64,000 nt of DNA from Candidatus Latescibacterota bacterium (GTDB lineage Bacteria; Latescibacterota; UBA2968; UBA8231), in the NCBI GenBank assembly GCA_965204725.1, contig OZ242005.1, positions 2,528,001 through 2,592,000 of the forward strand, in the 5' to 3' direction. The notes under the pieces are model-generated. The model searched no databases and was not told where the DNA came from. It saw nothing but the letters and a program-made list of their open reading frames with translations. Below are positions 24,868 through 57,188 of this stretch, in pieces. A program made the translations under genes and the position numbers. Position 1 is the stretch's first letter. Each line of letters starts with the position of its first letter.

Positions 24868-24868
24868 G

Positions 24869-25521: not shown

Positions 25522-25522
<1 letters not shown>
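24869..25522 (+). CDS. ureF: Urease accessory protein UreF
   Basis: [30 protein letters not shown]-terminal YSRLFQS. Confidence 0.93.
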
Positions 25523-26226
<704 letters not shown>

Positions 26227-27424: not shown

Positions 27425-27551
27425 GTTCATGACGAGCTTGGGGGTTGGCTTATCAGAAAAGGTCTCCGGGGCACCTTTTTGTGTCGATTGTGGTTTTTGT
27501 GTCTTTTTTCGTGGTTTTTGTGCTAAAAATCTTAACGTAGGAGGAGTGGTT

Positions 27552-27914
27552 ATGGTTGGTATGAGCAAGTCGGATGCGCGGGCGGAGTTGGATAGTCTGG
27601 GTATCGACTATACGGACGTGGATAAGTTTTTTGATTTGTTGGAGGAGGGCGCCTTAGCGCTTGGGGGGGCGGGCAACTTCGCGGTTGTCAAGCTGTTTGT
27701 GGTGGCGGGGATGGATGTGGACGCGAAGGACAGGGACGGCGGTACGGCGTTGCACTGGGCGGCGGATAGGGGTCGTTTGGATATAGTCAAGTTTTTGAAG
27801 TGTGCGGGAGCGAGTCTGCGAGATAGGGATGACGCTGGCTTGACGCCTCGGGGTAGGGCGGTAAGGAGGGGCCATACGGCGGTGGTGGATTATTTGGAGT
27901 CTGTGGGCGGGTAG
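27552..27914 (+). CDS. Short ankyrin-repeat protein
   Basis: RBS GGAGGAG, ATG at 27552. GGTALHWAADRGRLDIVKFL. Shares the ARAELDSLGIDYT N-cap with the next gene. Confidence 0.75.
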   Translation: MVGMSKSDARAELDSLGIDYTDVDKFFDLLEEGALALGGAGNFAVVKLFVVAGMDVDAKDRDGGTALHWAADRGRLDIVKFLKCAGASLRDRDDAGLTPRGRAVRRGHTAVVDYLESVGG

Positions 27915-28265
27915 GCTATCAGGGTCTTTCTACCGCTTGCGCGGACGGCTTGGTTGGTGTGTTGCTACATAGGTTGGGATGCAGGACCGCTTAGGAGGCG
28001 ACCTGGGGCGCGTGGGGGCGAGCGGGAGTTATCCACACGCTTCGAGTGACGGGGGGCGGGGGGGATCGGAAAGTGAATCGGCCTTGTGGGTGGAGATCGG
28101 ATGGCGGCGTTGGGTGTTTTTCGCGCAGGACTTCGGGTCAGGGTCGGGCGGGTTTGAATTTTTGAAAAAGTTATTTTTGGGGAAATTGTGTTTTTTGTGC
28201 GAATTGTGTCTTTTGTGCATTTTCGGCAGTCATTCATTGATCACTTCATACAGGGAGATTTAGTA

Positions 28266-29999
28266 ATGCGCTTTTTGCTGATGGTGTTGGTTGGCTTCGT
28301 GCTCAGTTGTGGCGATGGGGATCGGTCTGTTCAGGGACCGTCTGGTAAGGTGTCGGCGGATTGTTCGTTGGTGGAGATTTTTTCTGGTAAAGAGGGGTGT
28401 CAAGCGGATCCTTCATTAGATGAGGTGCCGGAGGGGTATGTGGCTCCAGTGGACAGCACGGAGACCGCGGATGCGGACAGTACGGCGGCTGGGTCTGAGA
28501 CTGAGACCGCGCCTTCGGACAGCACGGGTACTGAGACGGGTACTGCGCCTTCGGATACGACTGGGACTGAGACAGCACCCGCGGACAGCACTGAGCCTGC
28601 GGCTGAGACGCCTTCGGATACGTCTGGTTCTGATCCTGTGGTTCCTGAGCCTGTGATTATTCATGTGCCTGTGGAGGAGGAGCCTGATCCCGAAACGGCG
28701 CGGTCTGAGGCGGAGCCTGAGGACGAATCGTTGACGGCTGAACAAGCGCGGGCGCAGTTGGATAGTCTGGGTATTGCTTATACGGGCGCGGCGTTTCGTT
28801 TGGCGGCTCAGTCTGGCAACCTAGAGGTTGTTCAACTGTTCGTACAGGCGGGTATGTCTCTTGAGGAGGTGGATGACTACGACTGGACGGCGTTGTCCGA
28901 GGCGGCGTATGCAGGTCGCTTGGAGACCGTCAAGTATCTCGTGGGTCAAGGGGCGAATATCGAGGCCCGTGACGAGGACGGCTGGACGGTGTTGATGAAT
29001 GCGGCAGGCATAACGAACAACTTGTCGGTGGTTCGTTTTCTCGTGGAGTCTGGCGCGGATGTGCTCGCGGTTGGCGATGACCAACGGACGACCGCTTGGT
29101 CTGTGGCAATGACGGTGGGTAATACGGCGATTGCGGACTACTTGAAATCGCTGACCAACGCGGGAGATTCGGTTCCTCTATCGCGGGAAGAGGCCCGTGC
29201 GGAGTTGAGGCGGCTGGGTATTGATTATTCGGAAAATACGTTTTTTAGAGCGGCTGCGGGTGACGTATTAAACGCTTATGGTCAAGGTGTTAGTGGGGCT
29301 TATGGTTACGTTGGTGGGGCGAGCAATTTAGATGTTGTCAAATTGTTCGTGTGGGCCGGTTGGTCGGCAGATTATAGGGGCAGCAACTACGGCGAGACGG
29401 CGTTGCACAACGCGGCGGCGGGTGGTCATTTGGCGGCGGTTCGTTATCTCGTTGAGCAGGGGGCGGACCTTGAGGCTACGCGCTACGATGACTATACGGC
29501 GTTGCACAACGCGGCGGCGGGTGGTCATTTGGCGGTGGTTCGTTATCTCGTTGAGCAGGGGGCGGACCTTGAGGCTAAGAGCCGTTATGACTTTACGGCG
29601 TTGCTCTCTGCGGCGTATAGGGGTCATTGGGAGGTTGTAAAATTCTTAGTGGGTGCGGGTGCGGACCTTGAGGCTGCGTACTCCAGAGATTTGAGAAGCC
29701 GCAATGGTTTTACGGCGTTGCTCTTTGCGGTGGTGGGTGGTCGCTTGGATATGGTCAAGGTGTTAGTGGGTGCGGGGGCGGACGTGAATGTTAGGGCCAG
29801 AGAGTGGCCCTACTATCCGGCGTTGCATTATGCGGCGGTGGGTGGTCGCTTGGATATGGTCAAGGTGTTAGTGGGTGCGGGGGCGGACGTGAAAGCTACG
29901 ACCCACGTTGACAATACGGCGCGGGACGTGGCGAGGTCGAGTGGTCATACGGCGGTAGTGAATTATTTTGATTCGCTGGACGAGGACGATGACGAGTAG
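28266..29999 (+). CDS. Ankyrin-repeat lipoprotein with Ser/Thr/Asp-rich linker and acidic tail
   Basis: Lipobox-like VLSC. Two N-cap+ankyrin blocks, with near-exact 99-bp (29397/29496) and 105-bp (29732/29837) internal duplications. Ends DEDDDE. Confidence 0.88.
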   Translation: MRFLLMVLVGFVLSCGDGDRSVQGPSGKVSADCSLVEIFSGKEGCQADPSLDEVPEGYVAPVDSTETADADSTAAGSETETAPSDSTGTETGTAPSDTTGTETAPADSTEPAAETPSDTSGSDPVVPEPVIIHVPVEEEPDPETARSEAEPEDESLTAEQARAQLDSLGIAYTGAAFRLAAQSGNLEVVQLFVQAGMSLEEVDDYDWTALSEAAYAGRLETVKYLVGQGANIEARDEDGWTVLMNAAGITNNLSVVRFLVESGADVLAVGDDQRTTAWSVAMTVGNTAIADYLKSLTNAGDSVPLSREEARAELRRLGIDYSENTFFRAAAGDVLNAYGQGVSGAYGYVGGASNLDVVKLFVWAGWSADYRGSNYGETALHNAAAGGHLAAVRYLVEQGADLEATRYDDYTALHNAAAGGHLAVVRYLVEQGADLEAKSRYDFTALLSAAYRGHWEVVKFLVGAGADLEAAYSRDLRSRNGFTALLFAVVGGRLDMVKVLVGAGADVNVRAREWPYYPALHYAAVGGRLDMVKVLVGAGADVKATTHVDNTARDVARSSGHTAVVNYFDSLDEDDDE

Positions 30000-30031
30000 G
30001 TCTGTTTGTCTTATTCGTTGGTAGTTTCGGT

Positions 30032-30074
30032 ATAGGTCGGTGCTCGGTGGTATGGGGTGCCGACCTATTTTTTT
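30032..30074 (+). terminator. Intrinsic terminator
   Basis: ATAGGTCGGTGCTC...GGGGTGCCGACCTAT followed by a T run. Confidence 0.7.
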
Positions 30075-30436
30075 GCTTGTTTTGTGCGTTTTGTGCATAT
30101 CTAGGCAAATTTTTGTATGTCGGAAATGGAAAGTTTTCCAAATCCGACACGGATTGAGGCTGTTTGAGGCTGTAAAAAACTGTTTTTTATGGTGTGGGTC
30201 GGGTGAAAACTCGGTTTTTTTTTGTACCGATTCGTTTTTGCAGTGGGACATGGTGTCAACGGTTGTGCGGGCTGGCGGGGGGGGCTTTATCGGGTGCTCG
30301 ACTAGGCGACTAGGCGAATTGTGGCTTTTGTGCGAATTGTGCGTCTTGTGCGTCTTGGGTCTGTTGCGCGGTCAGGAACGTGTTTACAATTATGGTTCGA
30401 TTGTATCTCAATAATTTTACACAAAGGAGTGTTGCG

Positions 30437-31705
30437 GTGAAATCGCTATTGGGAATTTTGGCGTGTCTGTCGGTGTTGGTGATTGGTTGCGGTGAGGATA
30501 CGAAGCGGTCGGTGGGACCGTCAGCGGCGAAGGTGGCAAGTTCGACGCCTGAAACGGTGTGGACCAGTCTGAAGGCCGATGGCAAGTACACTACCGCAGG
30601 GTCGGCACTTGCGGCGTTTATCATGGCGGCGGCGGCGGGCGATCTGGCGGCGGTCAAGTTGTTTGTACAGGCTGGGGTCGATAAAGAGGGGCAATCTATT
30701 GTCAACATAGCGGGTATTGGTCGGTCACGGACTGCGCTTCATGCGGCGGCTCGTGGCGGTCATCGCGCTGTGGTTACGTACCTTCTTGGTCAGGGTGCGA
30801 GCGTTTCGTCCACGGACGGGTATGAGGACACGCCGCTTCATTCGGCGGTTGAGGCAGGAAATTTTTTGATGGTGCGGGAGCTTGTCGGTCAAGGGGCGAG
30901 TGTCGATGCTAAGAACACAGCGAGCGAGACCCCGTTGCATGTCGCGGTGGGCTATGGGCACTTGATGATTGTGAAGTATCTGGAAGGGCAAGGTGCCGAT
31001 CTTACAATCGCCTCCAGTGACGGCTTGACGCCCTGGGAGTTGGCGAAGCTTTGGGATAGTAGTACGGCGATAGTGACGTTCTTGGATTCGACGACGGCGC
31101 GGGCGTTTGTTGATTCGGCTGGGGCGGGCAACTTAGAAGTTGTCAAGTCATTGGTAACGGCGGGTATGCCGGTTGAGACTAAGGTCGAATACTATGACGG
31201 GCGCGATAGTCCAAGCTGGACGGCACTGCTTAGGGCGGCGTGGAAGGGTCATCTGGCTGTGGTTGAGTATCTGATCGGGAAGGAGGCGGATGTGGATGAG
31301 GTGGTCGGGTTCTTCCGTGCTGACGGTTCATATATTGCTACCTCTTATGGCGAGACAGCTCTGTACTTGGCGGCGGCGGGTGGTCATACGGCGGTGGCGA
31401 AGGCGTTGTTGGCTGCGGGTGCGACGGTGGATGCTAGGACCTATTTTTCCTATACCCCTTTGCACCTAGCGGCGTGGAATGGTCATCTGGCTATCGTCCA
31501 GTATCTGATTAGTTACGGGGCGGATGTGAATACTCCGACCGGCGGCACTGGCAGGACGCCTCGTTACTTCGCGGAGGATTGCATAAGGCAGGATGCGGCT
31601 ATGCTTCCCGACAAAGCTGCCCGTTGCCGGTTGGTGGTGGCTTATTTAGACACGCTGCTGCCCGATGACGATGACGATGACGACGACGATGACGACGACG
31701 AGTAG
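30437..31705 (+). CDS. Ankyrin-repeat lipoprotein with poly-Asp tail
   Basis: RBS AAGGAG, GTG at 30437. Lipobox LVIGC, TALHAAARGGH / TPLH repeats, ends D11E. Confidence 0.88.
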   Translation: MKSLLGILACLSVLVIGCGEDTKRSVGPSAAKVASSTPETVWTSLKADGKYTTAGSALAAFIMAAAAGDLAAVKLFVQAGVDKEGQSIVNIAGIGRSRTALHAAARGGHRAVVTYLLGQGASVSSTDGYEDTPLHSAVEAGNFLMVRELVGQGASVDAKNTASETPLHVAVGYGHLMIVKYLEGQGADLTIASSDGLTPWELAKLWDSSTAIVTFLDSTTARAFVDSAGAGNLEVVKSLVTAGMPVETKVEYYDGRDSPSWTALLRAAWKGHLAVVEYLIGKEADVDEVVGFFRADGSYIATSYGETALYLAAAGGHTAVAKALLAAGATVDARTYFSYTPLHLAAWNGHLAIVQYLISYGADVNTPTGGTGRTPRYFAEDCIRQDAAMLPDKAARCRLVVAYLDTLLPDDDDDDDDDDDDE

Positions 31706-46775: not shown

Positions 46776-47738
46776 ATGCCAGAACGCGTACAGATCGTAG
46801 TGCCCGGCGACAATCCCACTCAGATCGCCGGTTCGCCGCATTTGCAGCGGCTCGCGCCCTACGGGGACGTCACCCTGTTTGCGGATACGCCGCAAAGCGC
46901 GGGCGAGAAAATCGCCCGGGCCGAGGGGGCCCAAATCATCATCAACTCGCGCGGGGTCGTCACGTGGCGCGAGGAAATGCGCCGCTTGCCCGCGCTCAAA
47001 ATGATCGCCACCTGCTCCATCGGCACGGACATGATCGACTTGGCGATTGCCAAGGAGTGCGGAATCGTGGTGTCGAACCAGCCCGGCCGCACCGCGCCCG
47101 TGGTGGCCGAACACATGTTCGGGCTGATGTTTGCCCTGTCCAAGCGCGCTTATTTTCAGACGGCCGAGCTCAAGGCGGGGCGCTGGACGCGCAAGATGAA
47201 CACCATGCTACAGGGCAAGGTGCTGGGCGTGGTCGGCACGGGGCCGATTGGCGCGGAGATGGCGCGGTTGGGGCGGGCTATCGGCATGGAGGTCATCGCG
47301 TGGACCTTTCATCCGTCGCCGCAGCGTGCGGCCGAATACGGGGTGCGCTTCGTCGCGCTCGACGAGCTGTTGCAGACAGCGGACGTGGTCAGCCTGCACG
47401 TGCGGCTGACCGAGGATACTCGGCACTTGCTCGGGGCGCGCGAGTTTGGCCTAATGAAGGAGGGGGCGCTGGTGTTGAACGGCGCGCGCGGCGATGTGCT
47501 CGACATCCATGCCTTACGCACGGCCCTGTTGTCCGGGCATTTGGGCGGCGCCGGGCTCGACGTATTTTCACAGGAGCCGCTGCCGAGCGACGACCCCATT
47601 CTCGATTGCGAGCAGGTGGTGCTGACGCCGCATGCCGCGGATCAAACGCCTGAGGGAGTGGATTTGTTGAACGAGGGCGCGGTAGATAATGTGATTGCGT
47701 TTTTGCAGGGGCGGCCGCAAAACAACGTGGCCGTGTGA
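46776..47738 (+). CDS. D-2-hydroxyacid dehydrogenase (SerA/glycerate DH-like)
   Basis: VAEH, GVVGTGPIG, DVVSLH, N.ARG, AGLDVF..EP, LTPH. Confidence 0.92.
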   Translation: MPERVQIVVPGDNPTQIAGSPHLQRLAPYGDVTLFADTPQSAGEKIARAEGAQIIINSRGVVTWREEMRRLPALKMIATCSIGTDMIDLAIAKECGIVVSNQPGRTAPVVAEHMFGLMFALSKRAYFQTAELKAGRWTRKMNTMLQGKVLGVVGTGPIGAEMARLGRAIGMEVIAWTFHPSPQRAAEYGVRFVALDELLQTADVVSLHVRLTEDTRHLLGAREFGLMKEGALVLNGARGDVLDIHALRTALLSGHLGGAGLDVFSQEPLPSDDPILDCEQVVLTPHAADQTPEGVDLLNEGAVDNVIAFLQGRPQNNVAV

Positions 47739-47772: not shown

Positions 47773-48483
47773 ATGAATGACGAAAAGCAGCTAGAACGAG
47801 AAAACAAGAAATTTGTCGCGGCCTTGGGGCGCGAGCCGTCCTTGGAAGCAGTGGACGATGCGAAGCGGACGGATCTGCACCATGCAGCCGCATTGAACCT
47901 GCCCGCCCTTTCTACCTTCCTGCTGCACGGCGGGGCCGATGTCAACGCCAAGGACGAGGAAGGGATGATACCGCTGCACAGCGCGTCAATGAAGGATGCG
48001 CTTGAGGTCGCGAGGATTTTGCTGGACCGCGACACAGATGTCAACGCCAAGGACAAGGACGGCCTGACGCCCCTGCATGTTGCGACCGCACGGAATGCGC
48101 TGACGGTGGCGGAGTTTCTGCTCGAAAACGGCGCGGATATCAACGCCAAAAACTACTACAATGGCCTGACGCCTTTGCACCTTGCAACCGCGCGGAATGA
48201 GGTGGCGGTGGCGGAGTTTCTGCTCGAAAACGGCGCGGATGCCAACGCCAAGAACTACCACGACGGCCTGACGCCCCTGCACATTGCGACGATGCGGAAT
48301 GTTTTTCGGGTAGCCGAAATTTTGCTCGACAACGGCGCAGATGTCAACGCCAAGACGCGCGACGGCTGGACGCCGCTGTTTCTTGCCAAGCACAAAAAAG
48401 ACACGGTCGGGTTGGTGCTTCGCTTCTTTGGGATGGAGACGAGTATGGTTCGTTTGTTGCGCTGGCACGGGGGCGAGGAATAA
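47773..48483 (+). CDS. Ankyrin-repeat protein (no N-terminal anchor)
   Basis: About six GLTPLH...LLENGADVNAK repeats. Confidence 0.9.
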   Translation: MNDEKQLERENKKFVAALGREPSLEAVDDAKRTDLHHAAALNLPALSTFLLHGGADVNAKDEEGMIPLHSASMKDALEVARILLDRDTDVNAKDKDGLTPLHVATARNALTVAEFLLENGADINAKNYYNGLTPLHLATARNEVAVAEFLLENGADANAKNYHDGLTPLHIATMRNVFRVAEILLDNGADVNAKTRDGWTPLFLAKHKKDTVGLVLRFFGMETSMVRLLRWHGGEE

Positions 48484-48517
48484 ACAGTTGGGAGCACGTC
48501 AAACGAAAGGAAAACCC

Positions 48518-49546
48518 ATGAAAAACGTCGAGCAGGATGCGCCGCCACTAAAGCAGCCTAAGCAGCCCCGACCTAAGCGGCTTGCCCTAGCCTTGGGCGT
48601 GGCGGCGGTCTTGGTGGGGGGCATAATGTGTGGTGGACAGGACTCGGAGATGGACCCCGCAGAAAACGAGAGCTGGACGCTACTGCATCACGCGGCGTGG
48701 AAGGATTCTTCTGCGACAGCGAAGATGCTGCTGGAAAACGGAGCAGACCCAAACGCAAAAGACGACGAGGACCGGACGCCCCTGCACTGGGCGGCGTCGG
48801 GTCGTGCCATTGCGACGACGACGATGCTGCTCGAAAACGGAGCAGACGCAAGAGCAAAAGACAGCGAGGGCAAGACATCGCTGCACTGGGCGGCGTCTTC
48901 TAATGCCGATATGGTAACAACGATGTTGCTGGAAAACGGGGCGGACGTAAACGCAAAAGACGACGAGGACCGGACGCCCCTGCACTGGGCGATATCTTTT
49001 GGTGCCGTTGCGACCGCAAAGGTGTTGCTGGAAAGCGGCGCAGACGTAAACGCAAAAAACAACCACAGCCGGACGCCCCTGCACGAAACGGCGTGGCAGA
49101 AAGCGGCGGCGGCGGCGAGGATATTGCTGGAAAACGGCGCGGATGCAAACGTCAAAAGCAGCAAAGGCCGGACGCCCCTGCACGAAACGGCGGCGACGGA
49201 TGCGGCGGCGGTGGCGATGCTGCTGCTGGAGAACGGCGCAGACGTAAACGTCCGAGAAAACGAGGGCAGAACGCCGCTGCACGAAGCGGCGGGGAAGGAT
49301 GCCGTTGCGACCGCGAAGGTGTTGTTAGAAAATGGAGCGGATGTAAACGCCAAGAGCAACAAGGGCCGGACGCCCCTGCACTGGGCGGTGGTAGTGGATG
49401 CGGCGGCGACAACAAAAGTGTTGCTGGAAAACGGAGCACACGTAAACGCCCAGGACAACGAAGGCTGGACGCCGCTAATCTGGGCGGAGTTTAAGAATGC
49501 CGCTGCGGCAACGGAGGTATTGCACCAGTACGGTGCGCGCAAGTGA
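48518..49546 (+). CDS. Membrane-anchored ankyrin protein, 9 repeats
   Basis: Leader MKNVEQDAPP...LALALGVAAVLVGG, ankyrin repeats, C-cap ...YGARK. Confidence 0.92.
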   Translation: MKNVEQDAPPLKQPKQPRPKRLALALGVAAVLVGGIMCGGQDSEMDPAENESWTLLHHAAWKDSSATAKMLLENGADPNAKDDEDRTPLHWAASGRAIATTTMLLENGADARAKDSEGKTSLHWAASSNADMVTTMLLENGADVNAKDDEDRTPLHWAISFGAVATAKVLLESGADVNAKNNHSRTPLHETAWQKAAAAARILLENGADANVKSSKGRTPLHETAATDAAAVAMLLLENGADVNVRENEGRTPLHEAAGKDAVATAKVLLENGADVNAKSNKGRTPLHWAVVVDAAATTKVLLENGAHVNAQDNEGWTPLIWAEFKNAAAATEVLHQYGARK

Positions 49547-49577
49547 AAGGCTCAGTTTCCAATGGCAAGGAAAACCC

Positions 49578-50291
49578 ATGAAAAGCGTTGAGCCGGACGC
49601 GCCGCCACGGGAGCGGCCTGAGAAGACCCGATTTAAGCAGCTTGCCGTAGCCTTGGGCGTGGCGGCTGTCTTGGTTGGGGGCCTATCCCTATTCACCGCC
49701 AAAAACGACGCCGGACGGACACCCCTGCACGAAGCGGCGAGAGCAGATGCTACGGCGACCGCGAAGATGCTGCTCGAAAACGGAGCACACGTAAACGCAA
49801 AAGACAACAGGGGCCGGACGCCCCTACAAAGAGCGGCGGGGGTGGATGGGGCGGCGACCGCGAAGATGCTGCTCGAAAACGGGGCGCACGTAAACGCAAA
49901 GGACAACGACGGCTGGACACCGCTGCACGGAGCGGCGTTTGCGGATGGGGCGGCGACCGCGAAGATGCTGCTGGAAAACGGAGCACACGTAAACGCAAAA
50001 GACAACAAGAGCCGGACACCGCTACACGAAGCGGCGTTTGCGGATGCGGCGGCGACCGCGAAGATATTGTTGGAAAACGGGGCGCACGTAAACGCAAAAA
50101 GCAACAAGGGCCGGACGCCCCTGCACTGGGCGGTGGTAGTCGATGCGGCGGCAACAACAAAAGTGTTGCTGGAAAACGGAGCACACGTAAACGCAAAAGA
50201 CAACGAGGGCTGGACGCCCCTGATCTGGGCGGAGTTTAAGAATGCTGATGCGGCAACGGAGGTGTTGCACCAGTACGGTGCGCGCAAGTGA
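49578..50291 (+). CDS. Membrane-anchored ankyrin protein, 6 repeats
   Basis: Same leader and C-cap; RBS AAGGA. Confidence 0.92.
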   Translation: MKSVEPDAPPRERPEKTRFKQLAVALGVAAVLVGGLSLFTAKNDAGRTPLHEAARADATATAKMLLENGAHVNAKDNRGRTPLQRAAGVDGAATAKMLLENGAHVNAKDNDGWTPLHGAAFADGAATAKMLLENGAHVNAKDNKSRTPLHEAAFADAAATAKILLENGAHVNAKSNKGRTPLHWAVVVDAAATTKVLLENGAHVNAKDNEGWTPLIWAEFKNADAATEVLHQYGARK

Positions 50292-50329
50292 AAGGCTCAG
50301 TTTCCAATGGAGCTTGGCAAGGAAAACCT

Positions 50330-51244
50330 ATGAAAAACGTTGAGCCGGATGCGCCGCCACGGGAGCGGCCTGAGAAAACCCGATTTAAGCGGCTTGCCGT
50401 AGCCTTGGGCGTGGCGGCTGTCTTGGTTGGGGGCCTATCCCTGCTCACGGCCAAAAACGACGAAGGCGGGACGCCCCTGCACGAAGCGGCGAAGGCGGAT
50501 GCGGCGGCGACGGCAAAGATACTGCTGGAAAACGGAGCAGACGTAAATGCCCAAGACGATAAAGGCCGGACGCCGCTACACCGGGCGGCGAGGAAGGATG
50601 CCGTTGCAACAGCGAAGATACTGCTGGAAAACGGAGCAGACGTAAACGCAAAAAACAACAAGAGCCGGACACCCCTGCACGAAGCGGCGACAACAGATGC
50701 TGCTACGACGGCGAAGCTACTGCTAGAAAACGGCATAGCGGTAAACGCAAAAGGCAACAACGACCGGACACCCCTGCACGAAGCGGCGAGGACAGATGCT
50801 GCTACGACCGTGAAGATGCTGCTAGAAAACGGGGCAGACGTAAACGCAAAAAATAACGGAGGCCGGAGGCCGCTGGACCACGCGGCGGCGAATGATGCCG
50901 TTGCGACGGCGAAGCTACTGCTGGATAACGGAGCAGACGTAAACGCAAAAGACTACAACGGCTGGACACCGCTGCACTGGGCGGCGTTTGCGGATGCCGT
51001 TGCGACGGCGAAGATGCTGCTGGATAACGGAGCGCACACAAACGCAAAAGACAACGAAGGCTGGACGCCCCTGCACGAAGCGGCGAAGGCGGATGCGGCG
51101 GCAACAGCGAAGATACTGCTGGAAAACGGGGCAGACGTAAACGCAAAAGACAACGAAGGCTGGACGCCCCTGCACTGGGCGGAAGTTAAGAGTGCCGCTG
51201 CGACAGTGGAGGTGTTGCGCCGGTACGGGGGCGTTGGAGGCTAG
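50330..51244 (+). CDS. Membrane-anchored ankyrin protein, 8 repeats
   Basis: Same leader; C-cap WAEVKSAAATVEVLRRYG. Confidence 0.92.
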   Translation: MKNVEPDAPPRERPEKTRFKRLAVALGVAAVLVGGLSLLTAKNDEGGTPLHEAAKADAAATAKILLENGADVNAQDDKGRTPLHRAARKDAVATAKILLENGADVNAKNNKSRTPLHEAATTDAATTAKLLLENGIAVNAKGNNDRTPLHEAARTDAATTVKMLLENGADVNAKNNGGRRPLDHAAANDAVATAKLLLDNGADVNAKDYNGWTPLHWAAFADAVATAKMLLDNGAHTNAKDNEGWTPLHEAAKADAAATAKILLENGADVNAKDNEGWTPLHWAEVKSAAATVEVLRRYGGVGG

Positions 51245-51258
51245 TGTCGTGTAGTAAG

Positions 51259-51382
51259 GGCAGGACCTATCGGGGCTTTGACCACAGTTTGAATAAGCCC
51301 GTCGCCATCAAGGAATACCGGCCCACCGACATTGCCACCCGCACCGCAAGCCAGCGACTTTCACAGCGACTTCCCATGGGGC
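51259..51382 (+). pseudogene. Ser/Thr kinase remnant (subdomains I-II to DF.WG)
   Basis: TYRGFDHSLNKPVAIKEYRPTDIATRT aligns with the kinase at ~26723-26866, with an internal deletion. Confidence 0.85.
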
Positions 51383-51386
51383 ACCA

Positions 51387-52001
51387 ATGAAAAGCGTTGA
51401 GCCGGATGCGCCGCCACGGGAGCGGCCTGAGAAGACCCGATTTAAGTGGCTTGCCGCAGCCTTGGGCGTGGTTGCCCTCTTGGTTGGGGGCCTATCCCTG
51501 CTCACCGCCAAAGACGACAGAGACCGGACGCCCCTGCACTACGCAGCGAGGAAAGATGCCGTTGCAACAGCGAAGCTACTGCTGGAAAACGGAGCAGACG
51601 TAAACGCAAAAGCCAATAGAGGCCAGACGCCCCTGCACGAAACGGCGTGGATGGATGCGGCGGCGACCGCGAAGCTATTGCTGGAAAACGGGGCAGACGT
51701 AAATGCAAAAAACAACCACAGCCGGACGCCCCTGCACTACGCGGCGTGGAAGGATGCCGTTGCAACAGCGAAGGTGTTACTGGAAAACGGGGCAGACGTA
51801 AATGCCCAAGACGACAAAGGCTGGACGCCCCTGCACAAAACGTCGTGGATGGATGCGGCGGCGACCGCGAAGCTATTGCTGGAAAACGGGGCAGACGTAA
51901 ATGCCAAGGACAACGAGGGCTGGACGCCCCTGATCTGGACGGAGTTTAAGAATGCCGATGCGACAACGGAGGTGTTGCACCGGTACGGTGCGCGAAAGTG
52001 A
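51387..52001 (+). CDS. Membrane-anchored ankyrin protein, 5 repeats
   Basis: Same leader and C-cap. Confidence 0.9.
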   Translation: MKSVEPDAPPRERPEKTRFKWLAAALGVVALLVGGLSLLTAKDDRDRTPLHYAARKDAVATAKLLLENGADVNAKANRGQTPLHETAWMDAAATAKLLLENGADVNAKNNHSRTPLHYAAWKDAVATAKVLLENGADVNAQDDKGWTPLHKTSWMDAAATAKLLLENGADVNAKDNEGWTPLIWTEFKNADATTEVLHRYGARK

Positions 52002-52039
52002 AAGGCTCGACTTCCCATGGGGCTTGGCAAGGAAAACCA

Positions 52040-53083
52040 ATGAAAAGCGTTGAGCCGGATGCGCCGCCGCTAGAGCCGCCTAAGAAGCCCCGATTTAAGC
52101 GGCTTGCCGCAGCCTTGGGCGCGGTTGCCCTCTTGGTTGGGGGCATAATGTATGTTGGCTCCCTGCTCACATCGGGCGCGGACGTAAACACCCAAGACAA
52201 CAACGAATGGACGCCCCTGCACGAAGCGGCGTGGAAGGATGATTCTGCGACCGCAACGGTGTTGCTGGAGAACGGGGCGCACGTAAACGCAAAAGAAAAG
52301 AACGGCTGGACACCCCTGCATGAAGCAGCGAGGGCGGATGCCGTTGCAACAGTGAAGGTGCTGCTCGAAAACGGAGCAGACGTAAACGCAAAAAACAACG
52401 AGGGCAAGGTGCCCCTGCACTACGCGGCGGGGGCGGATGCCGCTGCGACCGCAAAGGTGTTGCTCGAAAACGGGGCGCACGTAAACACAAAAGACAACAA
52501 CGAGGGCAAGGCCCCCCTACACTACGCGGCGATAGTGGCTACTGCTGCGACCGCAAAGGTGTTGCTGGAGAACGGAGCGCACGTAAACACCCAAGACAAC
52601 AACGAATGGACACCCCTGCACGAAGCAGCGAAGACGGATGCCGCTGTAATAGCGGAGGTGCTGCTCGAAAATGGCGCAGACATAAACGCAAAAGACTACA
52701 ACGGCTGGACGCCCCTGCACGAAGCGGCGTGGAAGGATGCCGTTGCGACTGCGGAGGTGTTGCTCAAAAACGGCGCAGACGTAAACACCCAAGACAGCAG
52801 GGGCTGGACGCCCCTGCACTGGGCGGCGTCTTACGATGTCTCTGCGGCAGCGAAGCTGTTGCTAGATAACGGAGCGGACGCAAACGCAAAAACCAATAAG
52901 GGCCGGACGCCCCTGCACCGGGCGGCGTGGAATGATGCTGCGGCGACCGCGGAGGTGTTGCTCGAAAACGGCGCAGACGTAAACGCCAAAAACAACCATG
53001 GCTGGACGCCCCTGCACTGGGCGGAGGTTAAGAATGCCGCGGCAACAGCGGAGGTACTGCGCCGGTACGGTGCGCGAAAGTGA
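52040..53083 (+). CDS. Membrane-anchored ankyrin protein, 9 repeats
   Basis: Same leader; C-cap WAEVKNAAATAEVLRRYGARK. Confidence 0.92.
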   Translation: MKSVEPDAPPLEPPKKPRFKRLAAALGAVALLVGGIMYVGSLLTSGADVNTQDNNEWTPLHEAAWKDDSATATVLLENGAHVNAKEKNGWTPLHEAARADAVATVKVLLENGADVNAKNNEGKVPLHYAAGADAAATAKVLLENGAHVNTKDNNEGKAPLHYAAIVATAATAKVLLENGAHVNTQDNNEWTPLHEAAKTDAAVIAEVLLENGADINAKDYNGWTPLHEAAWKDAVATAEVLLKNGADVNTQDSRGWTPLHWAASYDVSAAAKLLLDNGADANAKTNKGRTPLHRAAWNDAAATAEVLLENGADVNAKNNHGWTPLHWAEVKNAAATAEVLRRYGARK

Positions 53084-53303: not shown

Positions 53304-54149
53304 ATGTTTCGCTCACTATCGCCGGGGGCCATCGGCGCAAGCGTAGAAAACCTCGCCGACGGGCTTGATTTGGCCGCACGGCACGGGTTCGCTGGGTATC
53401 ACTTTAGCATCGGCGAAGTCGCGACCATGGGCGCGGAAGAGGCCCTCGCGTTGGCCGAGCGCAAGGGCGTGCGCCTGTCGGCGTGGGGATTCCCCGTCGA
53501 TTTTCGCGGGGCGGAGGCCGCATACCAAGCGAGCTTGGCGCAGTTGCCGACCTTGGCCAAAGTAGCCGCGGCCTTGGGGGTGCGGCGGACGGCGACTTGG
53601 ATCATGCCGGCCTCGGACGAGTTGACCTATCAAGAGAACTTCGCCTTTCACGTTGAGCGGCTGCGGCCGGCCGCGGCCATACTCGCCGACGAAGGCGTGT
53701 GGTTGGGCTTGGAATACGTCGCGCCGAAAACCTCGCGGGCGAGCAAGCAATACGAGTTTGTCCACACGATGGCGCAAATGGCGGAACTGGGCCAAGCCGT
53801 AGGCGAGAACGTGGGCTTTCTGCTCGATAGCTGGCATTGGTACACGGCCAGCGAAACCGCGGCGGATGTGCGCCGCCTGCGCGCTCAGCAAGTGGTCGAT
53901 GTTCACGTCAACGACGCACCGGCCGGCGTGGAAATTGACGACCAACTCGACAACGTGCGCGACTTGCCTGGGGCGACCGGCGCAATCGACATTGCGGCGT
54001 TCCTCAGCGCCTTACAGCACATTGGCTACGACGGCCCGGTCATGGTCGAGCCGTTCAGCCAGCGCGTGCGCGCCATGGAGCGGGAAGAAGCGGTGGCAGC
54101 TACGACCGCCGCGCTGGGCCGCGTGTGGGAGCAAGCCGGACTCAGCTAA
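53304..54149 (+). CDS. Sugar-phosphate isomerase/epimerase family protein
   Basis: RBS AAGGAG, ATG at 53304. GLEY, LDSWHWY, VHVND, LPGATG.ID, YDGPVMVEPFS. Confidence 0.88.
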   Translation: MFRSLSPGAIGASVENLADGLDLAARHGFAGYHFSIGEVATMGAEEALALAERKGVRLSAWGFPVDFRGAEAAYQASLAQLPTLAKVAAALGVRRTATWIMPASDELTYQENFAFHVERLRPAAAILADEGVWLGLEYVAPKTSRASKQYEFVHTMAQMAELGQAVGENVGFLLDSWHWYTASETAADVRRLRAQQVVDVHVNDAPAGVEIDDQLDNVRDLPGATGAIDIAAFLSALQHIGYDGPVMVEPFSQRVRAMEREEAVAATTAALGRVWEQAGLS

Positions 54150-54150
54150 C

Positions 54151-55905
54151 GTGGAAACCCGCACCATTGAATGCGACGTCTTGGTCTTGGGCGGCGGCTT
54201 GGGGGGCGTGGCCGCGGCCGTGCGCGCCGCCCGCTTGGGCTATCGAGTTTGCCTGACCGAAGAGAACCCGTGGATCGGCGGCCAAGCCACCAGCCAAGGC
54301 GTAGCCGCCTTAGACGAGCATCCGCACATAGAGCGCTTTGGCGGCACGGCCCTCTACGGCGAATTCCGCGCCGGCATCCGCGCGTACTATCGCCGCAAAT
54401 ACCAACTGAAAAACCCAGACGATCCGCACTTCAACCCCGGGGCCGGCTGGGTCTCGGCCCTGTGCTTTGAGCCGCGCGCCGGCCTAACGGCCCTGCTGTC
54501 GTTAGTCGTACCCCAAGTCGAAGCCGGCCGCCTGACGCTCTTTTACCGCGCCCGGGCGTCGGCGGCCCACGTCCAAGGCCAGTCCATCCGCACCGTGGAC
54601 GTCGTCCAAGACGGTGGTACGCACGTCTTGCGCTTTGTTCCCACGTATGTGCTCGACGCCACCGAGCTAGGCGACCTGCTCCCCCTGCTGCCCGTCCCCT
54701 ACGTCTCAGGCGCTGAAAGCCGCGACCAAACCGGCGAGCCGCACGCCCGCGCGGCCGGCCCCGCGCCGCATTTGACCCAGTCTTTTACCTGCCCGTTTGC
54801 GGTCGATTTCTGCCCGGGTCGAGACCACACCATTCCCCGCCCGCCTAACTACGAGCACCACCGCGACCAGCAGCCCTTCACCTTGACCTTGCAGTACGCC
54901 CGCGGCTGGCGCACGTACCGATTCTTCGAGACCGCTGGCGACCTACCCGGCTCCTTTTGGGCCTACCGCCGCTTGTTGTGCGCCGATCAATTCGCCGAAG
55001 GGCAGGTGCCCGGGGACGTGGCGTTGATCAACTGGCCGGGCAACGACTACACCGGCGGCACCCTCATCGACGTATCGCCGACCGAGCAAGCGCAGCAGAT
55101 AGCGGCGGCCAAGGAACTGAGCTTGGGCTTGCTGTACTGGCTACAAACCGAGGTGCTGCGCGACGACGGGCGAGGCCGCGGCTATCCCGAGCTGCGGCTG
55201 CGCCCCGACATCATGGGGACTGCCGATGGCTTCTCCCAGCACCCGTACATCCGCGAATCCCGGCGCATAGAAGCGCACAAGACCATTGTCGAGCAAGAGG
55301 TGGCCGCTTCGCACCAGCCCAATGCGCGCGCCGCTCCTTTTGGCGACAGCGTCGGCGTGGGTTGGTATGCCATCGACATCCACGGCCAAGCTACGGACGT
55401 GGTGTACATCGCGCCGACCAAGCCCTTCCAGATCCCGCTGAGCGCGCTCGTGTCGCGGCACTTGGACAACTTGCTAGCGGCCGGCAAAAACATCGGCACT
55501 ACGCACATCACCAATGGCTGCTACCGCCTGCATCCCGTGGAGTGGAACATCGGCGAGGCCGCGGGTGCTTTGGCTGCTTTTTGCCTCGGCCAGCGACGAA
55601 CTCCAGCGACAGTGTGCCGCAACGTGGCGGTGTGCCGCCAGTACCAGCAGACCTTGCTGGCAGCCGGTGTGCCGCTGTATTGGTATGAGGATGTGCCGCT
55701 AGGGCATCCGGCCTTTGCGGCCGTACAGAGGCTGGCGGTGGCGGGGCTATGGCCGGGCCGGGCCGATCATTTGCGCTTCGACCCCGATGCCCTAGTCGAC
55801 GCGCCGGCCGAGCACCTGCGGGCCGCTGGCCTGTCGCCGGACTTGGCCGGCCGCGATCCCATGACGCGCGGGGACTTGGCTCGTCGGATGGCCCAGCATT
55901 TGTAA
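54151..55905 (+). CDS. FAD-dependent oxidoreductase
   Basis: DVLVLGGGLGG, WIGGQATSQGV, DATELGDL, PYIRESRRI, FQIPL, THITNGCYRLHPVEW. Confidence 0.9.
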   Translation: METRTIECDVLVLGGGLGGVAAAVRAARLGYRVCLTEENPWIGGQATSQGVAALDEHPHIERFGGTALYGEFRAGIRAYYRRKYQLKNPDDPHFNPGAGWVSALCFEPRAGLTALLSLVVPQVEAGRLTLFYRARASAAHVQGQSIRTVDVVQDGGTHVLRFVPTYVLDATELGDLLPLLPVPYVSGAESRDQTGEPHARAAGPAPHLTQSFTCPFAVDFCPGRDHTIPRPPNYEHHRDQQPFTLTLQYARGWRTYRFFETAGDLPGSFWAYRRLLCADQFAEGQVPGDVALINWPGNDYTGGTLIDVSPTEQAQQIAAAKELSLGLLYWLQTEVLRDDGRGRGYPELRLRPDIMGTADGFSQHPYIRESRRIEAHKTIVEQEVAASHQPNARAAPFGDSVGVGWYAIDIHGQATDVVYIAPTKPFQIPLSALVSRHLDNLLAAGKNIGTTHITNGCYRLHPVEWNIGEAAGALAAFCLGQRRTPATVCRNVAVCRQYQQTLLAAGVPLYWYEDVPLGHPAFAAVQRLAVAGLWPGRADHLRFDPDALVDAPAEHLRAAGLSPDLAGRDPMTRGDLARRMAQHL

Positions 55906-56138: not shown

Positions 56139-56408
56139 ATGCAAACCTACATCGTCTCTTACGATAGGGCTCGGGGAGGCGATTACAACGCCCTCCACAA
56201 AGCCATCAAGGGCTACGGTACTTGGGCCCATATTACCGAGTCAACATGGGCAGTGGTGGCAGGGCCCGAATATAGCGCGGAGACGATTCGCGATCACTTG
56301 AGCGGATACCTGCCTGATGAAAGCAGTCTTTTCGTCGTCAAGTCGGGCATTGAAGCAGCTTGGCGAAATGTGTTCTGTCGCAGCAAATGGCTAAAAAGGA
56401 GCCTTTAG
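56139..56408 (+). CDS. Cas2/VapD-like ferredoxin-fold small protein (copy 1)
   Basis: YIVSYD, Y..L...I..YG, HITESTW, IRDHL...L.....LFV. Confidence 0.65.
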   Translation: MQTYIVSYDRARGGDYNALHKAIKGYGTWAHITESTWAVVAGPEYSAETIRDHLSGYLPDESSLFVVKSGIEAAWRNVFCRSKWLKRSL

Positions 56409-56870: not shown

Positions 56871-57188
56871 ATGCAAACCTATATCGTCTCTTACGATATG
56901 GCTTGGGGAGGTGATTACAACGCCCTCCACGAAGCTATCCAAAGTTATTCGGCTTGTGCGCCTATTACCGAATCAACATGGGCAGTATTGACCGAATACA
57001 GCGCGGAAATGATTCGCGATCACTTGAGCGAGTACCTGCCCGATGGAAGCCGTCTTTTCGTCGTCCGCTCGGGCGATGAAGCGGCGTGGCAATACCTGAA
57101 CAGCTCCTCCGAATGGTTGGAAGCCATCCTGTTGCAAGATGCAGGCCGCCTCAATAAACTGCACTCAACCATGCAACTTGATTCGTAA
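56871..57188 (+). CDS. Cas2/VapD-like small protein (copy 2)
   Basis: Paralog of 56139-56408, with the same leader AGGATAACCAGCCATGCAAACCTA. Confidence 0.65.
   Translation: MQTYIVSYDMAWGGDYNALHEAIQSYSACAPITESTWAVLTEYSAEMIRDHLSEYLPDGSRLFVVRSGDEAAWQYLNSSSEWLEAILLQDAGRLNKLHSTMQLDS

Follow-up and report, generated by a model that had tools for sequence, protein, structure and literature searches.

Ankyrin 'eukaryotic-like proteins' of sponge symbionts were reportedly described by Nguyen, Liu and Thomas in 2014 and by Reynolds and Thomas in 2016, and Siozios is said to have found in 2013 that Wolbachia ankyrin genes evolve rapidly. Among bacterial Hanks-type receptor Ser/Thr kinases, those of the PknB-PASTA type have their sensor domain outside the cytoplasm, and in plants the receptor-like kinases (RLKs) and kinase-less receptor-like proteins (RLPs) form tandem clusters that differ between close species. 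DARPin libraries, the work of Binz et al. in 2003, are reportedly randomised at repeat positions 2, 3, 5, 13, 14 and 33. Among published accounts, one describes single recombinant eukaryotic-like proteins, ankyrin ones included, with which cyanobacteria escape sponge phagocytosis, some such proteins also leading to accumulation of E. coli in amoebae (PMC13747020). Others report ankyrin eukaryotic-like proteins in sponge-associated Latescibacterota genomes (PMC12993501), list ankyrin repeats among the three associated domains that yeast/C. elegans kinases have in common with Planctomycetota kinases (PMC11032199), and describe hypervariable ankyrin, TPR and WD repeats in fungal NOD-like receptors (NLRs), where repeats classed as of high internal conservation (at least 85% amino-acid identity across 100 residues or more) are under positive selection and differ in number from isolate to isolate (PMC4986451).

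The window analysed here, a stretch of 64,000 nucleotides, contains five tandem ankyrin genes, g1–g5. These share with the sponge-symbiont proteins an ankyrin-only composition, an N-terminal export or anchor signal, many copies and a bacterium from sponge metagenomes; they differ in forming a tandem array apparently derived from receptor-kinase genes, with an N-terminal segment homologous to a true membrane span. A full-text literature search yielded no publication that deals with kinase-TM-ankyrin proteins of sponge symbionts. While ankyrin eukaryotic-like proteins of sponge symbionts were already known, our best reading is that g1–g5 would be a kinase-less, inner-membrane-anchored, periplasm-facing form of them; what is new here is the apparent origin of the leader from the juxtamembrane/TM segment of a receptor kinase. 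Full-length paralogues follow the Hanks-type plan: the kinase is cytoplasmic, a single TM helix follows, and the C-terminal repeats lie across the membrane. In contrast, g1–g5 lack the kinase. The outer domain is of the ankyrin kind, with an E/R/K-rich stalk ahead of it in the full-length forms, and a sister form has TonB_C in its place. The likeness to plant RLK/RLP clusters (kinase-bearing and kinase-less single-pass receptors with a common repeat ectodomain, varying at solvent-exposed positions) is an analogy only, the repeats being ankyrin and not LRR and the setting the periplasm of a bacterium. Variable sites on the concave face, repeat numbers that differ between genomes and unit recombination or concerted evolution are shared with the fungal NLR and Wolbachia ankyrins; however, the within-gene mean identity of g1–g5 is 57–75%, compared to at least 85% for the fungal repeats, and dN/dS is not above 1.

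Organization of the ankyrin array

The features of the region, all on the + strand, are:

46776..47738, +, left flank, D-2-hydroxyacid dehydrogenase gene (Pfam 2-Hacid_dh_C, 6e-55)
47773..48483, +, g0, ankyrin protein of 236 aa without leader (Pfam Ank, 1.8e-40), directly upstream of g1
48518..49546, +, g1, leader/TM, 8 ankyrin units, C-cap type A, 342 aa
49547..49577, +, g1-g2 spacer, 31 nt, with a AAGGAAAACC motif ahead of the ATG
49578..50291, +, g2, leader/TM, 5 units, C-cap type A, 237 aa, the last two units 93–95% identical in nucleotides to those of g1
50330..51244, +, g3, leader/TM, 7 units, C-cap type B, 304 aa
51244..51333, +, protein-kinase remnant A, …GRTYRGFDHSLNKPVAIKEYRPTDI…, without an intact ORF
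51387..52001, +, g4, leader/TM, 4 units, C-cap type A, 204 aa
52040..53083, +, g5, leader/TM, 8 units, C-cap type B, 347 aa
53121..53252, +, protein-kinase remnant B, …DFQWGLERFLDEARTLARFQHPNIVRVLHFFEA
53304..55905, +, right flank, xylose-isomerase-like TIM-barrel gene, then FAD-dependent oxidoreductase gene (Pfam)

The array occupies positions 48518–53083, and all five ORFs (204–347 aa) are intact, with no frameshift or stop codon, each having its own start codon, leader and C-cap. The common domain order is a short charged N-terminus, one hydrophobic segment, ankyrin repeats and the C-cap, and all five match Pfam Ank families with E-values of 1e-35 to 1e-66. The initial annotation had recognised five consecutive leader-bearing ankyrin genes with 9, 6, 8, 5 and 9 repeats (37 in total), and both points agree with our ORF calls, Pfam matches and shared leader, the counts being those obtained on the TPLH register with the C-cap taken as a unit. 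Its leader consensus, MK[SN]VEPDAPP, describes a segment that is common to g1–g5, except that g1 reads MKNVEQDAPP. Its two C-cap types are also present, type A (IW[AT]EFKNA...VLH.YGARK) in g1, g2 and g4 and type B (HWAEVK...VLRRYG) in g3 and g5, with the amendment that the g4 cap has WTEFK. The 3′ end of g3 encodes …YGGVGG, compared to …YGARK in the other four genes, and remnant A starts at the g3 stop codon. The maximum hydrophobicity of g0 is merely 1.14, and it is conserved at this position in the genus, 7 of the 17 other genomes examined having an orthologue (68–84% amino-acid identity) directly 3′ of the dehydrogenase gene; g0 and the two kinase remnants were absent from the initial annotation.

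Spacers resembling that between g1 and g2 are found at 50292–50329 and 52002–52039, and the AAGGAAAACC motif precedes four of the five start codons; g4, which lacks this ribosome-binding motif, may be poorly translated. Because the spacers are short and a search for promoter-like sites on the + strand found none, we infer that g1–g5 are co-transcribed.

Origin of the leader and kinase remnants

The leader common to all five genes has a 19-residue Kyte-Doolittle maximum of 2.1–2.3 at residues 22–40, and the N-terminal flank of the hydrophobic segment carries a net charge of +2 to +4. In tblastn searches against the genome (G000) the leaders match the segment directly after the kinase domain in two long ORFs (599 and 798 aa, both with Pkinase and Ank in Pfam) at 61–67% identity over 33–39 aa, with E-values of 4e-8 and, for the g5 leader, 5.5e-12 and 1.1e-9. 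Alignment of the leaders with these kinase-fused paralogues gives a pattern common to all, VE.DAPP.E.P...FK.LA..LG..ALL.GG, with the stalk and N-cap deleted from g1–g5 and the TM segment joined to SLLT; in g5 the leader/TM runs into SLLTSGADVNTQ, which is what is left of the N-cap repeat. As judged by this comparison, the leader shares homology with the juxtamembrane/TM portion of proteins that have the layout Ser/Thr-kinase-TM-stalk-ankyrin and are encoded at other places in the genome. In the kinase-fused family the kinase comes first, then the juxtamembrane segment and a single TM helix, and after these the E/R/K-rich helical stalk and the ankyrin repeats, the kinases of the full-length paralogues having VAIK, HRD and DFG motifs. 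Both Pkinase and Ank are present in 114 of the 120 best database relatives of the 599-aa paralogue; its single-sequence structure model was poor (mean pLDDT 51).

The kinase remnants flank g4–g5, one inside the array and one at its end. Remnant A is 72–76% identical (tblastn against the genome) to four kinase copies, full-length or remnant, and its break point, IATRTA, is also that of the kinase remnant belonging to a kinase-less ankyrin gene at G000:C1 ~2658 kb. Remnant B is identical at 35/35 residues to the intact kinase at G000:C1:4484333, and its FQWGL codons (TTTCCAATGGGGCTTGG) recur in the spacers between ankyrin genes.

Membrane topology

Because the kinase must be cytoplasmic, the C-terminal domain of the fused proteins must lie on the far side of the membrane. 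In sister proteins the same kinase, TM segment and stalk are followed by a TonB_C domain (P0059, residues 494–568, E = 3.7e-14), a domain that is periplasmic in TonB, and an OmpL-like porin gene within the window suggests that the cell has an outer membrane. We infer that the ankyrin domains of g1–g5 are periplasmic and kept near the inner membrane. Their earlier description as surface receptors is doubtful, since in the kinase-fused homologues this domain is periplasmic and the cell probably has two membranes. How ankyrin repeats in the periplasm would reach host proteins is not obvious, which counts against the explanation that we favour below.

Repeat variation and mosaicism

Over the 32 full-length units, per-position entropy is high (1.4–3.1 bits) at positions 1–5, 10, 13 and 14, moderate at 17 and 22, and near zero at L8, L23, L24, G27, N26, A28 and N31, so that the fixed framework with variation in few positions is as initially reported, the variable positions being those of the concave face. 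Position 33, presumably randomised in DARPins, is K in 26 of these units. Substitution is non-uniform, nonsynonymous to synonymous changes numbering 84:17 at variable positions and 87:87 elsewhere (Fisher p = 2e-8). The dN/dS ratio is 1.0 at the variable positions, which were partly defined from the same data (1.16 against pooled dS, bootstrap interval 0.89–1.54), 0.76 at the DARPin positions, set in advance, and 0.22–0.32 in the framework. These ratios indicate a framework under purifying selection and concave-face positions that evolve at about the neutral rate; positive selection is not demonstrated, because variable-position dN/dS is about 1 (framework 0.2–0.3), a value also expected from relaxed constraint.

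The proposed DARPin-like pattern stands insofar as positions 2, 3, 5, 13 and 14, five of the six randomised in the libraries, are variable in g1–g5, but this is a generic ankyrin property and not specific to the locus; because any ankyrin family shows it, it is no pointer to a library-like mechanism. Unlike the libraries, g1–g5 have a conserved position 33, a variable position 10 and no N-cap, while N-to-C stacked consensus-like repeats and a C-cap are common to both (PMC8683736).

As reported initially, the WAVVVD unit occurs in two genes (g1r8 and g2r5, 94/99 nt identical), as does the AKNNHSRTPLH segment (g1 and g4, 33/33 nt). The 3′ ends of g1 and g2 are 93–95% identical, MaxChi places a significant g1/g2 boundary (reached in 0/500 permutations), and two leader types and two cap types occur in all four combinations; on these alignments the mosaicism is real. 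Short identical runs between units are not significant after correction for 666 pairs. Nucleotide identity among the repeats has a mean of 71% and a maximum of 95%, and the repeats appear to be old. No reverse transcriptase, recombinase, transposase or invertase domain was found among 56 window ORFs scanned, out of 62 picked (at least 100 aa); the other six were g0, the frames of g1, g3, g4 and g5 (Pfam-scanned separately) and a minus-strand frame across g2.

Occurrence in metagenome samples

The locus was found in sponge-metagenome runs (15 runs are listed with it, 0/15 on record as RNA), and, of the relatives that carry a name, those nearest to the g4 protein come from Candidatus Latescibacterota genomes assembled from metagenomes; the bacterium is probably sponge-associated and probably a Latescibacterota. 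Contigs from three other public runs are the same as the window, or almost so, over the parts of the locus that they span, two of these runs coming from different studies. The between-sample differences listed inside g1–g5 number 35, with 22 synonymous and 13 nonsynonymous, and one of the 13 falls at a variable surface position.

Function and mode of evolution

We lean, by somewhat more than an even chance, towards g1–g5 encoding membrane-anchored ankyrin binding proteins that descend from receptor-type Hanks Ser/Thr kinases but have neither kinase nor stalk. In a genome where the kinase-ankyrin family appears to have expanded, ancestral kinase-TM-stalk-ankyrin genes would have lost kinase and stalk, leaving anchored ankyrin modules with a cytoplasmic N-terminus and the ankyrin domain across the inner membrane, in the periplasm; the array would have grown by tandem duplication via unequal crossing-over, duplication of single 99-nt units and gene conversion. 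Each paralogue may bind a different protein ligand via the concave face, and the products could be decoys or co-receptors for the kinase-fused receptors, on the model of plant RLPs alongside RLKs, or envelope 'eukaryotic-like proteins' that meet host material on uptake by sponge cells. Intact ORFs, the AAGGAAAACC start context in 4/5 genes, framework constraint and mostly synonymous between-sample differences are signs of function.

It is possible, with distinctly lower probability, that the proteins are secreted eukaryotic-like effectors that disturb sponge phagocytosis, the leader being a cleavable Sec signal peptide and the route leading to the periplasm and then beyond it by a secretion system, vesicles or lysis. 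The positively charged N-region followed by a hydrophobic segment is in keeping with this, and LTA|K after that segment in g2–g4 could be a signal-peptidase site, which would favour it; but the LTA motif is absent in g1 and g5, the hydrophobic stretch of ~18–19 residues is long for a signal peptide, the homologous segment is necessarily membrane-spanning in the kinase-fused paralogues, and the juxtamembrane residues kept between fused and kinase-less forms are not needed for a mere export signal. Effectors would also suit the presence of the locus in sponge metagenomes, the recombinant ankyrin proteins with which cyanobacteria evade phagocytosis and those known in sponge-associated Latescibacterota (PMC13747020 and PMC12993501). 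Improbable, in our view, is that g1–g5 are decaying relics, the remains of degraded kinase-ankyrin genes without a function of their own: the kinase remnants, the lack of a ribosome-binding motif in g4, the near-neutral rate at variable positions and the missing N-cap repeat would all fit, but five long ORFs free of frameshift or stop, the low framework dN/dS, the start context kept in all but one gene, the mainly synonymous differences between samples and the persistence of the kinase-less layout in G046, G007 and G019 argue otherwise.

Of the repeat-shuffling receptor repertoire proposed in the initial annotation, the anchored, mosaic multigene set is retained, and the VLR-like programmed mechanism is not. 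We consider it very improbable that diversity is programmed, by a VLR-like system, gene conversion or phase variation, with units or cassettes shuffled within the population to give many receptor variants. Mosaic ends (the g1/g2 3′ tract and the four leader-cap combinations), the 33-nt identical β-turn tract of g1 and g4 and tandem units that are 100% identical in the closest species, G046, would be expected of it, as would a variant g5 tract in run X1 (17 differences in 292 nt), the listed g0, g1 and g3 pieces of that run being the same as the window. However, the X1 tract has 12/23 listed differences in common with run X13 and so has the look of an allele that was exchanged, runs X10 and X12 give pieces that do not differ from the window, and the sole apparent deletion joint (X12) is probably cross-mapping of the kinase-fused paralogue. 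Silent cassettes and incomplete acceptor genes are absent, g1–g5 all being complete, and the age of the repeats, the non-significant short runs and the lack of recombinase-type domains among the ORFs scanned also weigh against programmed shuffling. The best reading is that the array is a gene family evolving by birth-and-death.

Turnover across the genus

The dehydrogenase gene is 83–97% identical in 29 of 30 other genus genomes searched, while the TIM gene is present at 80–96% identity in 12 of the 17 regions compared (two as fragments only) and the oxidoreductase at 90–92% in 10 of the 17, the distance of these right-flank genes from the dehydrogenase varying among regions. Across 18 genomes of the genus, the dehydrogenase and TIM genes are as little as 57 bp and as much as >18 kb apart, with anything from nothing to at least five kinase genes in between. 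The array lies in a fast-changing spot, very unlike from one species of the genus to the next, and both content and repeat numbers vary in related genomes, the initial annotation having named an identical locus there among the observations that would speak against its proposal. G046 has four leader-ankyrin genes with 8, 12, 9 and 7 units, the count for the nine-unit gene (a3) taking in a 37-residue first unit missed by the motif scan. The flanking dehydrogenase gene is 93.6% identical in nucleotides between G000 and G046, and yet 34 of the 37 G000 units are closer to a sequence of G000 itself than to any in G046.

Organization of the ankyrin gene array

The description that best fits the sequence of the locus is a tandem family of ankyrin binding modules, kinase-less, anchored and probably periplasmic, that come from receptor Ser/Thr kinases and lie in a hypervariable interval. 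Its components are:

47773-48483: g0, a sixth ankyrin gene, directly upstream of g1 and without a leader
48518-53083, + strand: g1 to g5, five ORFs encoding a leader followed by ankyrin repeats
51244-51333: kinase remnant A, between g3 and g4, …KPVAIKEYRPTDI…, 30 residues
53121-53252: kinase remnant B, after g5, …DFQWGLERFLDEARTLARFQHPNIVRVLHFFEA, 44 residues

All five products match the Pfam ankyrin families PF00023/PF12796 above the gathering threshold (E = 1e-35 to 1e-66; Ank scores of 119-215 bits against a cut-off of 21.1), with tandem 33-residue TPLH…LL..GA..N units, and no Pfam family other than ankyrin exceeds its gathering score in any of them. Counted in the TPLH register, g1 to g5 contain 9, 6, 8, 5 and 9 units, each of 33 residues except for one of 34 and the C-caps (the last unit of each gene) of 30-31, which are of two types. 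The N-termini read MK[SN]VE[PQ]DAPP, after which come a basic stretch and, at residues 22-40, a hydrophobic segment with a 19-residue Kyte-Doolittle mean of 2.1-2.3 and an N-flank net charge of +2 to +4; the initial annotation had described these genes and repeats correctly apart from small details. The spacers between g1 and g2, g2 and g3, and g4 and g5 are 31-38 nt, and a AAGGAAAACC motif is located immediately 5′ of the ATG in g1, g2, g3 and g5 and is absent before g4 (window 51367-51389), which may be translated weakly or by coupling to another gene. A promoter scan of the locus found no promoter-like site on the + strand. On the minus strand, positions 48500-53000 contain 33 terminator-like matches against 11.7 expected, but we rejected these as repeat artefacts, as most are the reverse complement of repeated G-R-T-P-L codons.

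Relationship to kinase-fused paralogues

Searching the whole genome with the leaders (tblastn) gives two further sites, each about 800 nt 3′ of a protein-kinase N-lobe within the same ORF. ORFs with a Pkinase domain followed by ankyrin repeats are:

L073:11307-13106, + strand: 599 aa, intact Pkinase domain
L074:3382-5778, minus strand: 798 aa, intact Pkinase domain
L073:1118-2539: a third such ORF, 473 aa

The kinase of the ankyrin-fused paralogues retains the VAIK, HRD and DFG motifs, and an alignment (A2) reveals VE.DAPP.E.P…FK.LA..LG..ALL.GG as common to g1-g5 and the post-kinase segment of the paralogues. In these long forms the hydrophobic segment is followed by a stalk of E/R/K-rich 11-residue repeats and then by an N-cap repeat (…LNLPVL.RSLLTQGA..NA); in g1-g5 both stalk and N-cap repeat are deleted, with the hydrophobic segment fused to SLLT… (alignment A2). 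The stalk repeat, (EQAALEKQRRE)n in the 798-aa and 599-aa proteins, differs greatly in length among copies, and may form a single helix spanning the periplasm. There is no Pfam Pkinase match in g1-g5, so that none is a Hanks-type receptor kinase with an intact kinase domain in the same polypeptide. Kinase remnant B is identical at 35 of 35 residues to an intact kinase elsewhere in the genome, and FQWGL codons reappear in the spacers of the ankyrin genes. A kinase-less ankyrin gene at about 2658 kb starts GKP|MKSV…, and the kinase remnant upstream of it breaks at IATRTA, the same point as remnant A. We conclude from these sequence relationships that g1-g5 derive from kinase-TM-stalk-ankyrin genes; kinase and stalk would have been lost first, with tandem multiplication following.

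Several searches contributed little to this question. Residues 1-45 of g3 have no match at E <= 0.01 among database proteins of 167-532 aa, a query too short to be informative; a search with the whole of g3 was dropped as a guide to the family since generic ankyrin proteins (29-53% identity) dominated it; and a single-sequence AlphaFold2 model of the 599-aa paralogue was set aside (mean pLDDT 51, with odd secondary-structure calls in the ankyrin part). We also note that L073 (G000:C1:4483000-4498000) is a signalling cluster, with Pkinase-ankyrin, two trypsin-like-FHA, VWA, MotA/ExbB, FHA, PP2C phosphatase, multi-span Pkinase and Pkinase-TM-ankyrin genes.

The initial annotation placed the ankyrin domains on the cell surface, and the long forms point to a different location. 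These have one membrane span and a kinase that requires ATP, so their C-terminal domain should lie outside the cytoplasm, and the basic N-flank of g1-g5 agrees with an N-in orientation. Of the 120 top-ranking database relatives of the 599-aa paralogue, four have TonB_C in place of ankyrin. In one of them, P0059, the kinase, span and stalk are unchanged and TonB_C follows them at residues 494-568, so this receptor family can exchange its outer domain; the TonB_C domain of TonB is periplasmic. An OmpL-like porin gene in the window suggests an outer membrane. Given the kinase-side topology, the TonB_C sister protein and the porin, the ankyrin domains of g1-g5 are most likely periplasmic, held at the inner membrane rather than displayed on the surface. 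A putative cleavage point follows LTA in the g2, g3 and g4 leaders.

Variation and mosaicism among repeat units

With the units numbered in the DARPin register, the T of TPLH being position 6, the 32 full-length units show high entropy at positions 1-5, 10, 13 and 14, moderate entropy at 17 and 22, and almost none in the TPLH and LLENGA.VNA framework. By the Nei-Gojobori method over all pairs, dN/dS is 0.96 at positions 1, 2, 3, 5, 10, 13 and 14 and 0.21 in the framework; it is 0.76 at what we take to be the six randomised DARPin positions (2, 3, 5, 13, 14 and 33). Independent contrasts come from 16 disjoint nearest-neighbour pairs of units.

Substitutions in 16 disjoint nearest-neighbour pairs of units (nonsynonymous:synonymous)
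Variable (surface) positions: 84:17, dN/dS 1.00
All other positions: 87:87, dN/dS 0.32

Uniform substitution across codons had been named as evidence against the repertoire proposal, and substitution is instead strongly non-uniform, with a significant difference between the two classes (Fisher p = 2e-8). Purifying selection acts on the framework. At the surface positions, positive selection is not shown, as dN/dS against pooled dS is 1.16 with a bootstrap interval of 0.89-1.54, for a surface class chosen partly from the same data. A fixed framework with a variable surface is a general property of ankyrin repeats, and by itself is therefore no sign of a library mechanism.

The 37 units have a mean nucleotide identity of 71%, the most similar pair being g1r8 and g2r5 at 95%, and most units have their nearest neighbour within their own gene, a sign that single units were duplicated inside genes. 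Between genes, the leaders are 81-96% alike over the first 105 nt and the caps 80-95%, above the collinear internal units at 56-84% (leaving out the 95% penultimate unit of g1 and g2). The mosaicism looked for among these genes is real, and is of the kind that unequal crossing-over and gene conversion would produce within a tandem family. In g1 and g2 the final two units are 93-95% identical and the preceding four 70-76%, with a MaxChi breakpoint (chi-square 37.7) reached in none of 500 permutations. There are also two leader forms, …GGL-SLLT in g2, g3 and g4 and …GGIM… in g1 and g5, and all four combinations with the two cap types are present, requiring either recombination or convergence. 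Shuffling of short surface segments is only a suggestion from the sequence: the AKNNHSRTPLH segment is identical at 33 of 33 nt in g1 and g4, in units that are otherwise 77% alike (P = 0.011 by run-length simulation for that pair alone), and in a GENECONV-style test no short identical tract, this one included, keeps clear significance once 666 pairs are corrected for.

Turnover of the interval between genomes

The closest named matches of the g4 protein are in two Candidatus Latescibacterota metagenome-assembled genomes, and the bacterium itself probably belongs to the Latescibacterota. At E <= 1e-20 the g4 protein has matches in 18 of 24 sampled genomes of the genus and in 11 of 12 sampled from another genus in the class, with identity at or below 61% throughout. 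The left flank is a 2-hydroxyacid dehydrogenase gene, which 29 of the other 30 genus genomes searched carry at 83-97% identity. We compared the 20 kb downstream of this gene in 17 of the other genus genomes and the window; the right flank consists of a TIM-barrel gene and then an FAD oxidoreductase.

Distance from the dehydrogenase gene to the TIM-barrel gene in 18 genomes of the genus
57 bp: G009
0.8 kb: G045
2.6-3.4 kb: G002, G010, G022, G044
4.9 kb: G001
5.6 kb: G000 (the window)
9.7-17.4 kb: G005, G043, G004, G013, G023
>18 kb (TIM-barrel gene beyond the fetched region): G046, G011, G007, G019, G012

The locus is thus far from identical in related genomes, where an identical locus had been named in the initial annotation as evidence against its proposal, and the interval contains nothing, a single ankyrin gene, kinase-ankyrin fusions, or five or more kinase genes. 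Four genomes have kinase-less leader-ankyrin genes at this site, with five in G000, four in G046, and one each in G007 and G019. G046 is the closest species, with a dehydrogenase 97% identical in amino acid and 93.6% in nucleotide sequence, and its interval has g0, then four leader-ankyrin genes, then a truncated kinase. Unit numbers differ between these species, with 8, 12, 9 and 7 in G046 compared to 9, 6, 8, 5 and 9 here; the nine of the third G046 gene, a3 (L075 5047-6144), include a 37-residue first unit missed by the motif scan. Gene a3 has three tandem units that are 100% identical in nucleotide sequence, and a2 has two at 98%, so single-unit duplication has been recent there. No unit match between the two species exceeds 86%, and for 34 of the 37 units of G000 and 30 of the 35 of G046 the most similar unit lies in the same genome. 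This clustering, together with the variable interval, argues that birth-and-death and concerted evolution renew the array much more rapidly than the genes on either side of it.

Variation in public sequencing runs

All 15 of the listed public runs contain part of the locus, five of them labelled as sponge metagenomes, and three coded organisms also carry it; on these labels the bacterium encoding the array is probably sponge-associated. Variation within the species was seen through Logan short-read contigs from four runs, which break at repeats and cannot show the order or number of units. The listed pieces of runs X10 and X12 are identical to the window, and X10 may be its source sample; X12 is uncovered at 49610-50564 and 51520-52092, gaps that are not evidence of absence. 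Run X1 is identical over its listed g0, g1 and g3 pieces and has 17 differences in 292 nt of a g5 tract and six in another piece, and X13 differs by about 1-8% per piece. There are 40 listed between-sample differences (121 more are unlisted), 35 of which are in g1-g5, with 22 synonymous and 13 nonsynonymous; only one of the 13 is at a variable surface position. Among the listed differences, then, surface changes are rare: each paralogue has retained its surface from one sample to another, an argument that the specificities are stable.

An apparent joint in X12, 51454→52114, was rejected as a deletion of g4 and is probably cross-mapping of a kinase-fused paralogue. The loose end preceding it encodes kinase-linker sequence of a paralogue located near 4495 kb. 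On the g4 side, 50 of 56 nt agree with this paralogue and the 3-nt offset is correct; on the g5 side, 42 of 61 nt agree. The X13 contigs have an apparent joint at 50434→51493 (side 70).

Nature of the repertoire

Of the proposed DARPin-like, VLR-like receptor repertoire that shuffles its repeats, the idea of a repertoire has support on an evolutionary scale, but the VLR-like mechanism does not. A system of that kind has an incomplete acceptor and donor cassettes lacking their own start and ends, whereas g1-g5 are complete genes, each with its own ATG, leader and C-cap. Nor did a dedicated diversifying enzyme, as in VLR-like, diversity-generating retroelement or invertase systems, turn up nearby: no reverse transcriptase, recombinase, invertase, transposase or deaminase was found by Pfam at E <= 1e-5 among 56 scanned ORFs of at least 100 aa in the 64-kb window. 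These are 56 of the 62 ORFs picked, the others being g0, the g1, g3, g4 and g5 frames (scanned against Pfam separately) and a minus-strand frame across g2. Another comparison is with fungal NLRs, whose ankyrin repeats are strongly conserved internally, are polymorphic in number and show positive selection on their concave face (PMC4986451). Genes g1-g5 differ from this type in internal conservation, with a within-gene mean amino acid identity of 0.57-0.75 and a best pair of 0.88, compared to at least 85% over at least 100 residues in the fungal type. Positive selection on the binding face would appear as dN/dS above 1, and the surface values here are 1.00 over the 16 disjoint pairs, 1.16 (0.89-1.54) against pooled dS, and 0.76 at the six DARPin positions over all pairs. 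Repeat numbers differ here between species, and the contigs that represent variation within the species are short-read assemblies that break at repeats.

We consider it unlikely, though worth stating, that the dehydrogenase-TIM interval is a bacterial counterpart of the receptor-kinase/receptor-like-protein clusters of plants, a repertoire for host or phage recognition and signalling. By this analogy it would house receptor Ser/Thr kinases whose ankyrin ectodomains stand on E/R/K stalks in the periplasm, a repertoire evolving by birth-and-death in which the kinase-less paralogues serve as decoys or co-receptors, and through which the sponge symbiont would recognise host- or phage-derived proteins and signal across the inner membrane. 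If this were so, ankyrin repeats would be a bacterial extracytoplasmic recognition domain tied to eukaryote-type phosphosignalling.

Of the genomic features that mark sponge symbionts, ankyrin eukaryotic-like proteins are the best known. The description of the locus as anchored modules from receptor kinases suggests one route to them, in which ankyrin-ectodomain receptor kinases shed the kinase and multiply as anchored binding modules. Should the ankyrin domains be periplasmic sensors or partners of the kinase forms, they would be receivers of signals and not injected effectors, and the reading of ankyrin proteins in symbiont genomes would change; the array would then also offer a tractable set of natural ankyrin binders for ligand searches. 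Such proteins are reported from sponge-associated Latescibacterota genomes (PMC12993501), single recombinant eukaryotic-like proteins, ankyrin included, alter uptake by sponge cells (PMC13747020), and the ankyrin repeat domain is one of three associated domains common to yeast/C. elegans and Planctomycetota kinases (PMC11032199). Full-text searches, with subscription journals outside their coverage, turned up no paper that describes kinase-TM-ankyrin receptors from sponge symbionts.

Other features of the window

By Pfam content the window has genes for metabolism, transport, urease and housekeeping, along with another kinase/ankyrin cluster at 26.6-31.7 kb. A urease cluster (UreD, fused UreAB, UreC, UreF and UreG), a periplasmic binding-protein/ABC transporter set and the OmpL-like porin are located at 14541-26226. 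Two small paralogous ORFs (MQTYIVSYD…GGDYNALH…) at 56139-56408 and 56871-57188 are in a stretch of lower GC (0.548), and a Pfam scan of the latter gave no match. This other kinase/ankyrin cluster, at 26630-31705, consists of a truncated Pkinase ORF (26630-27424) and ankyrin ORFs at 27333-27914, 28188-29999 and 30380-31705, in a stretch with an unusually high GC skew of 0.26-0.32.
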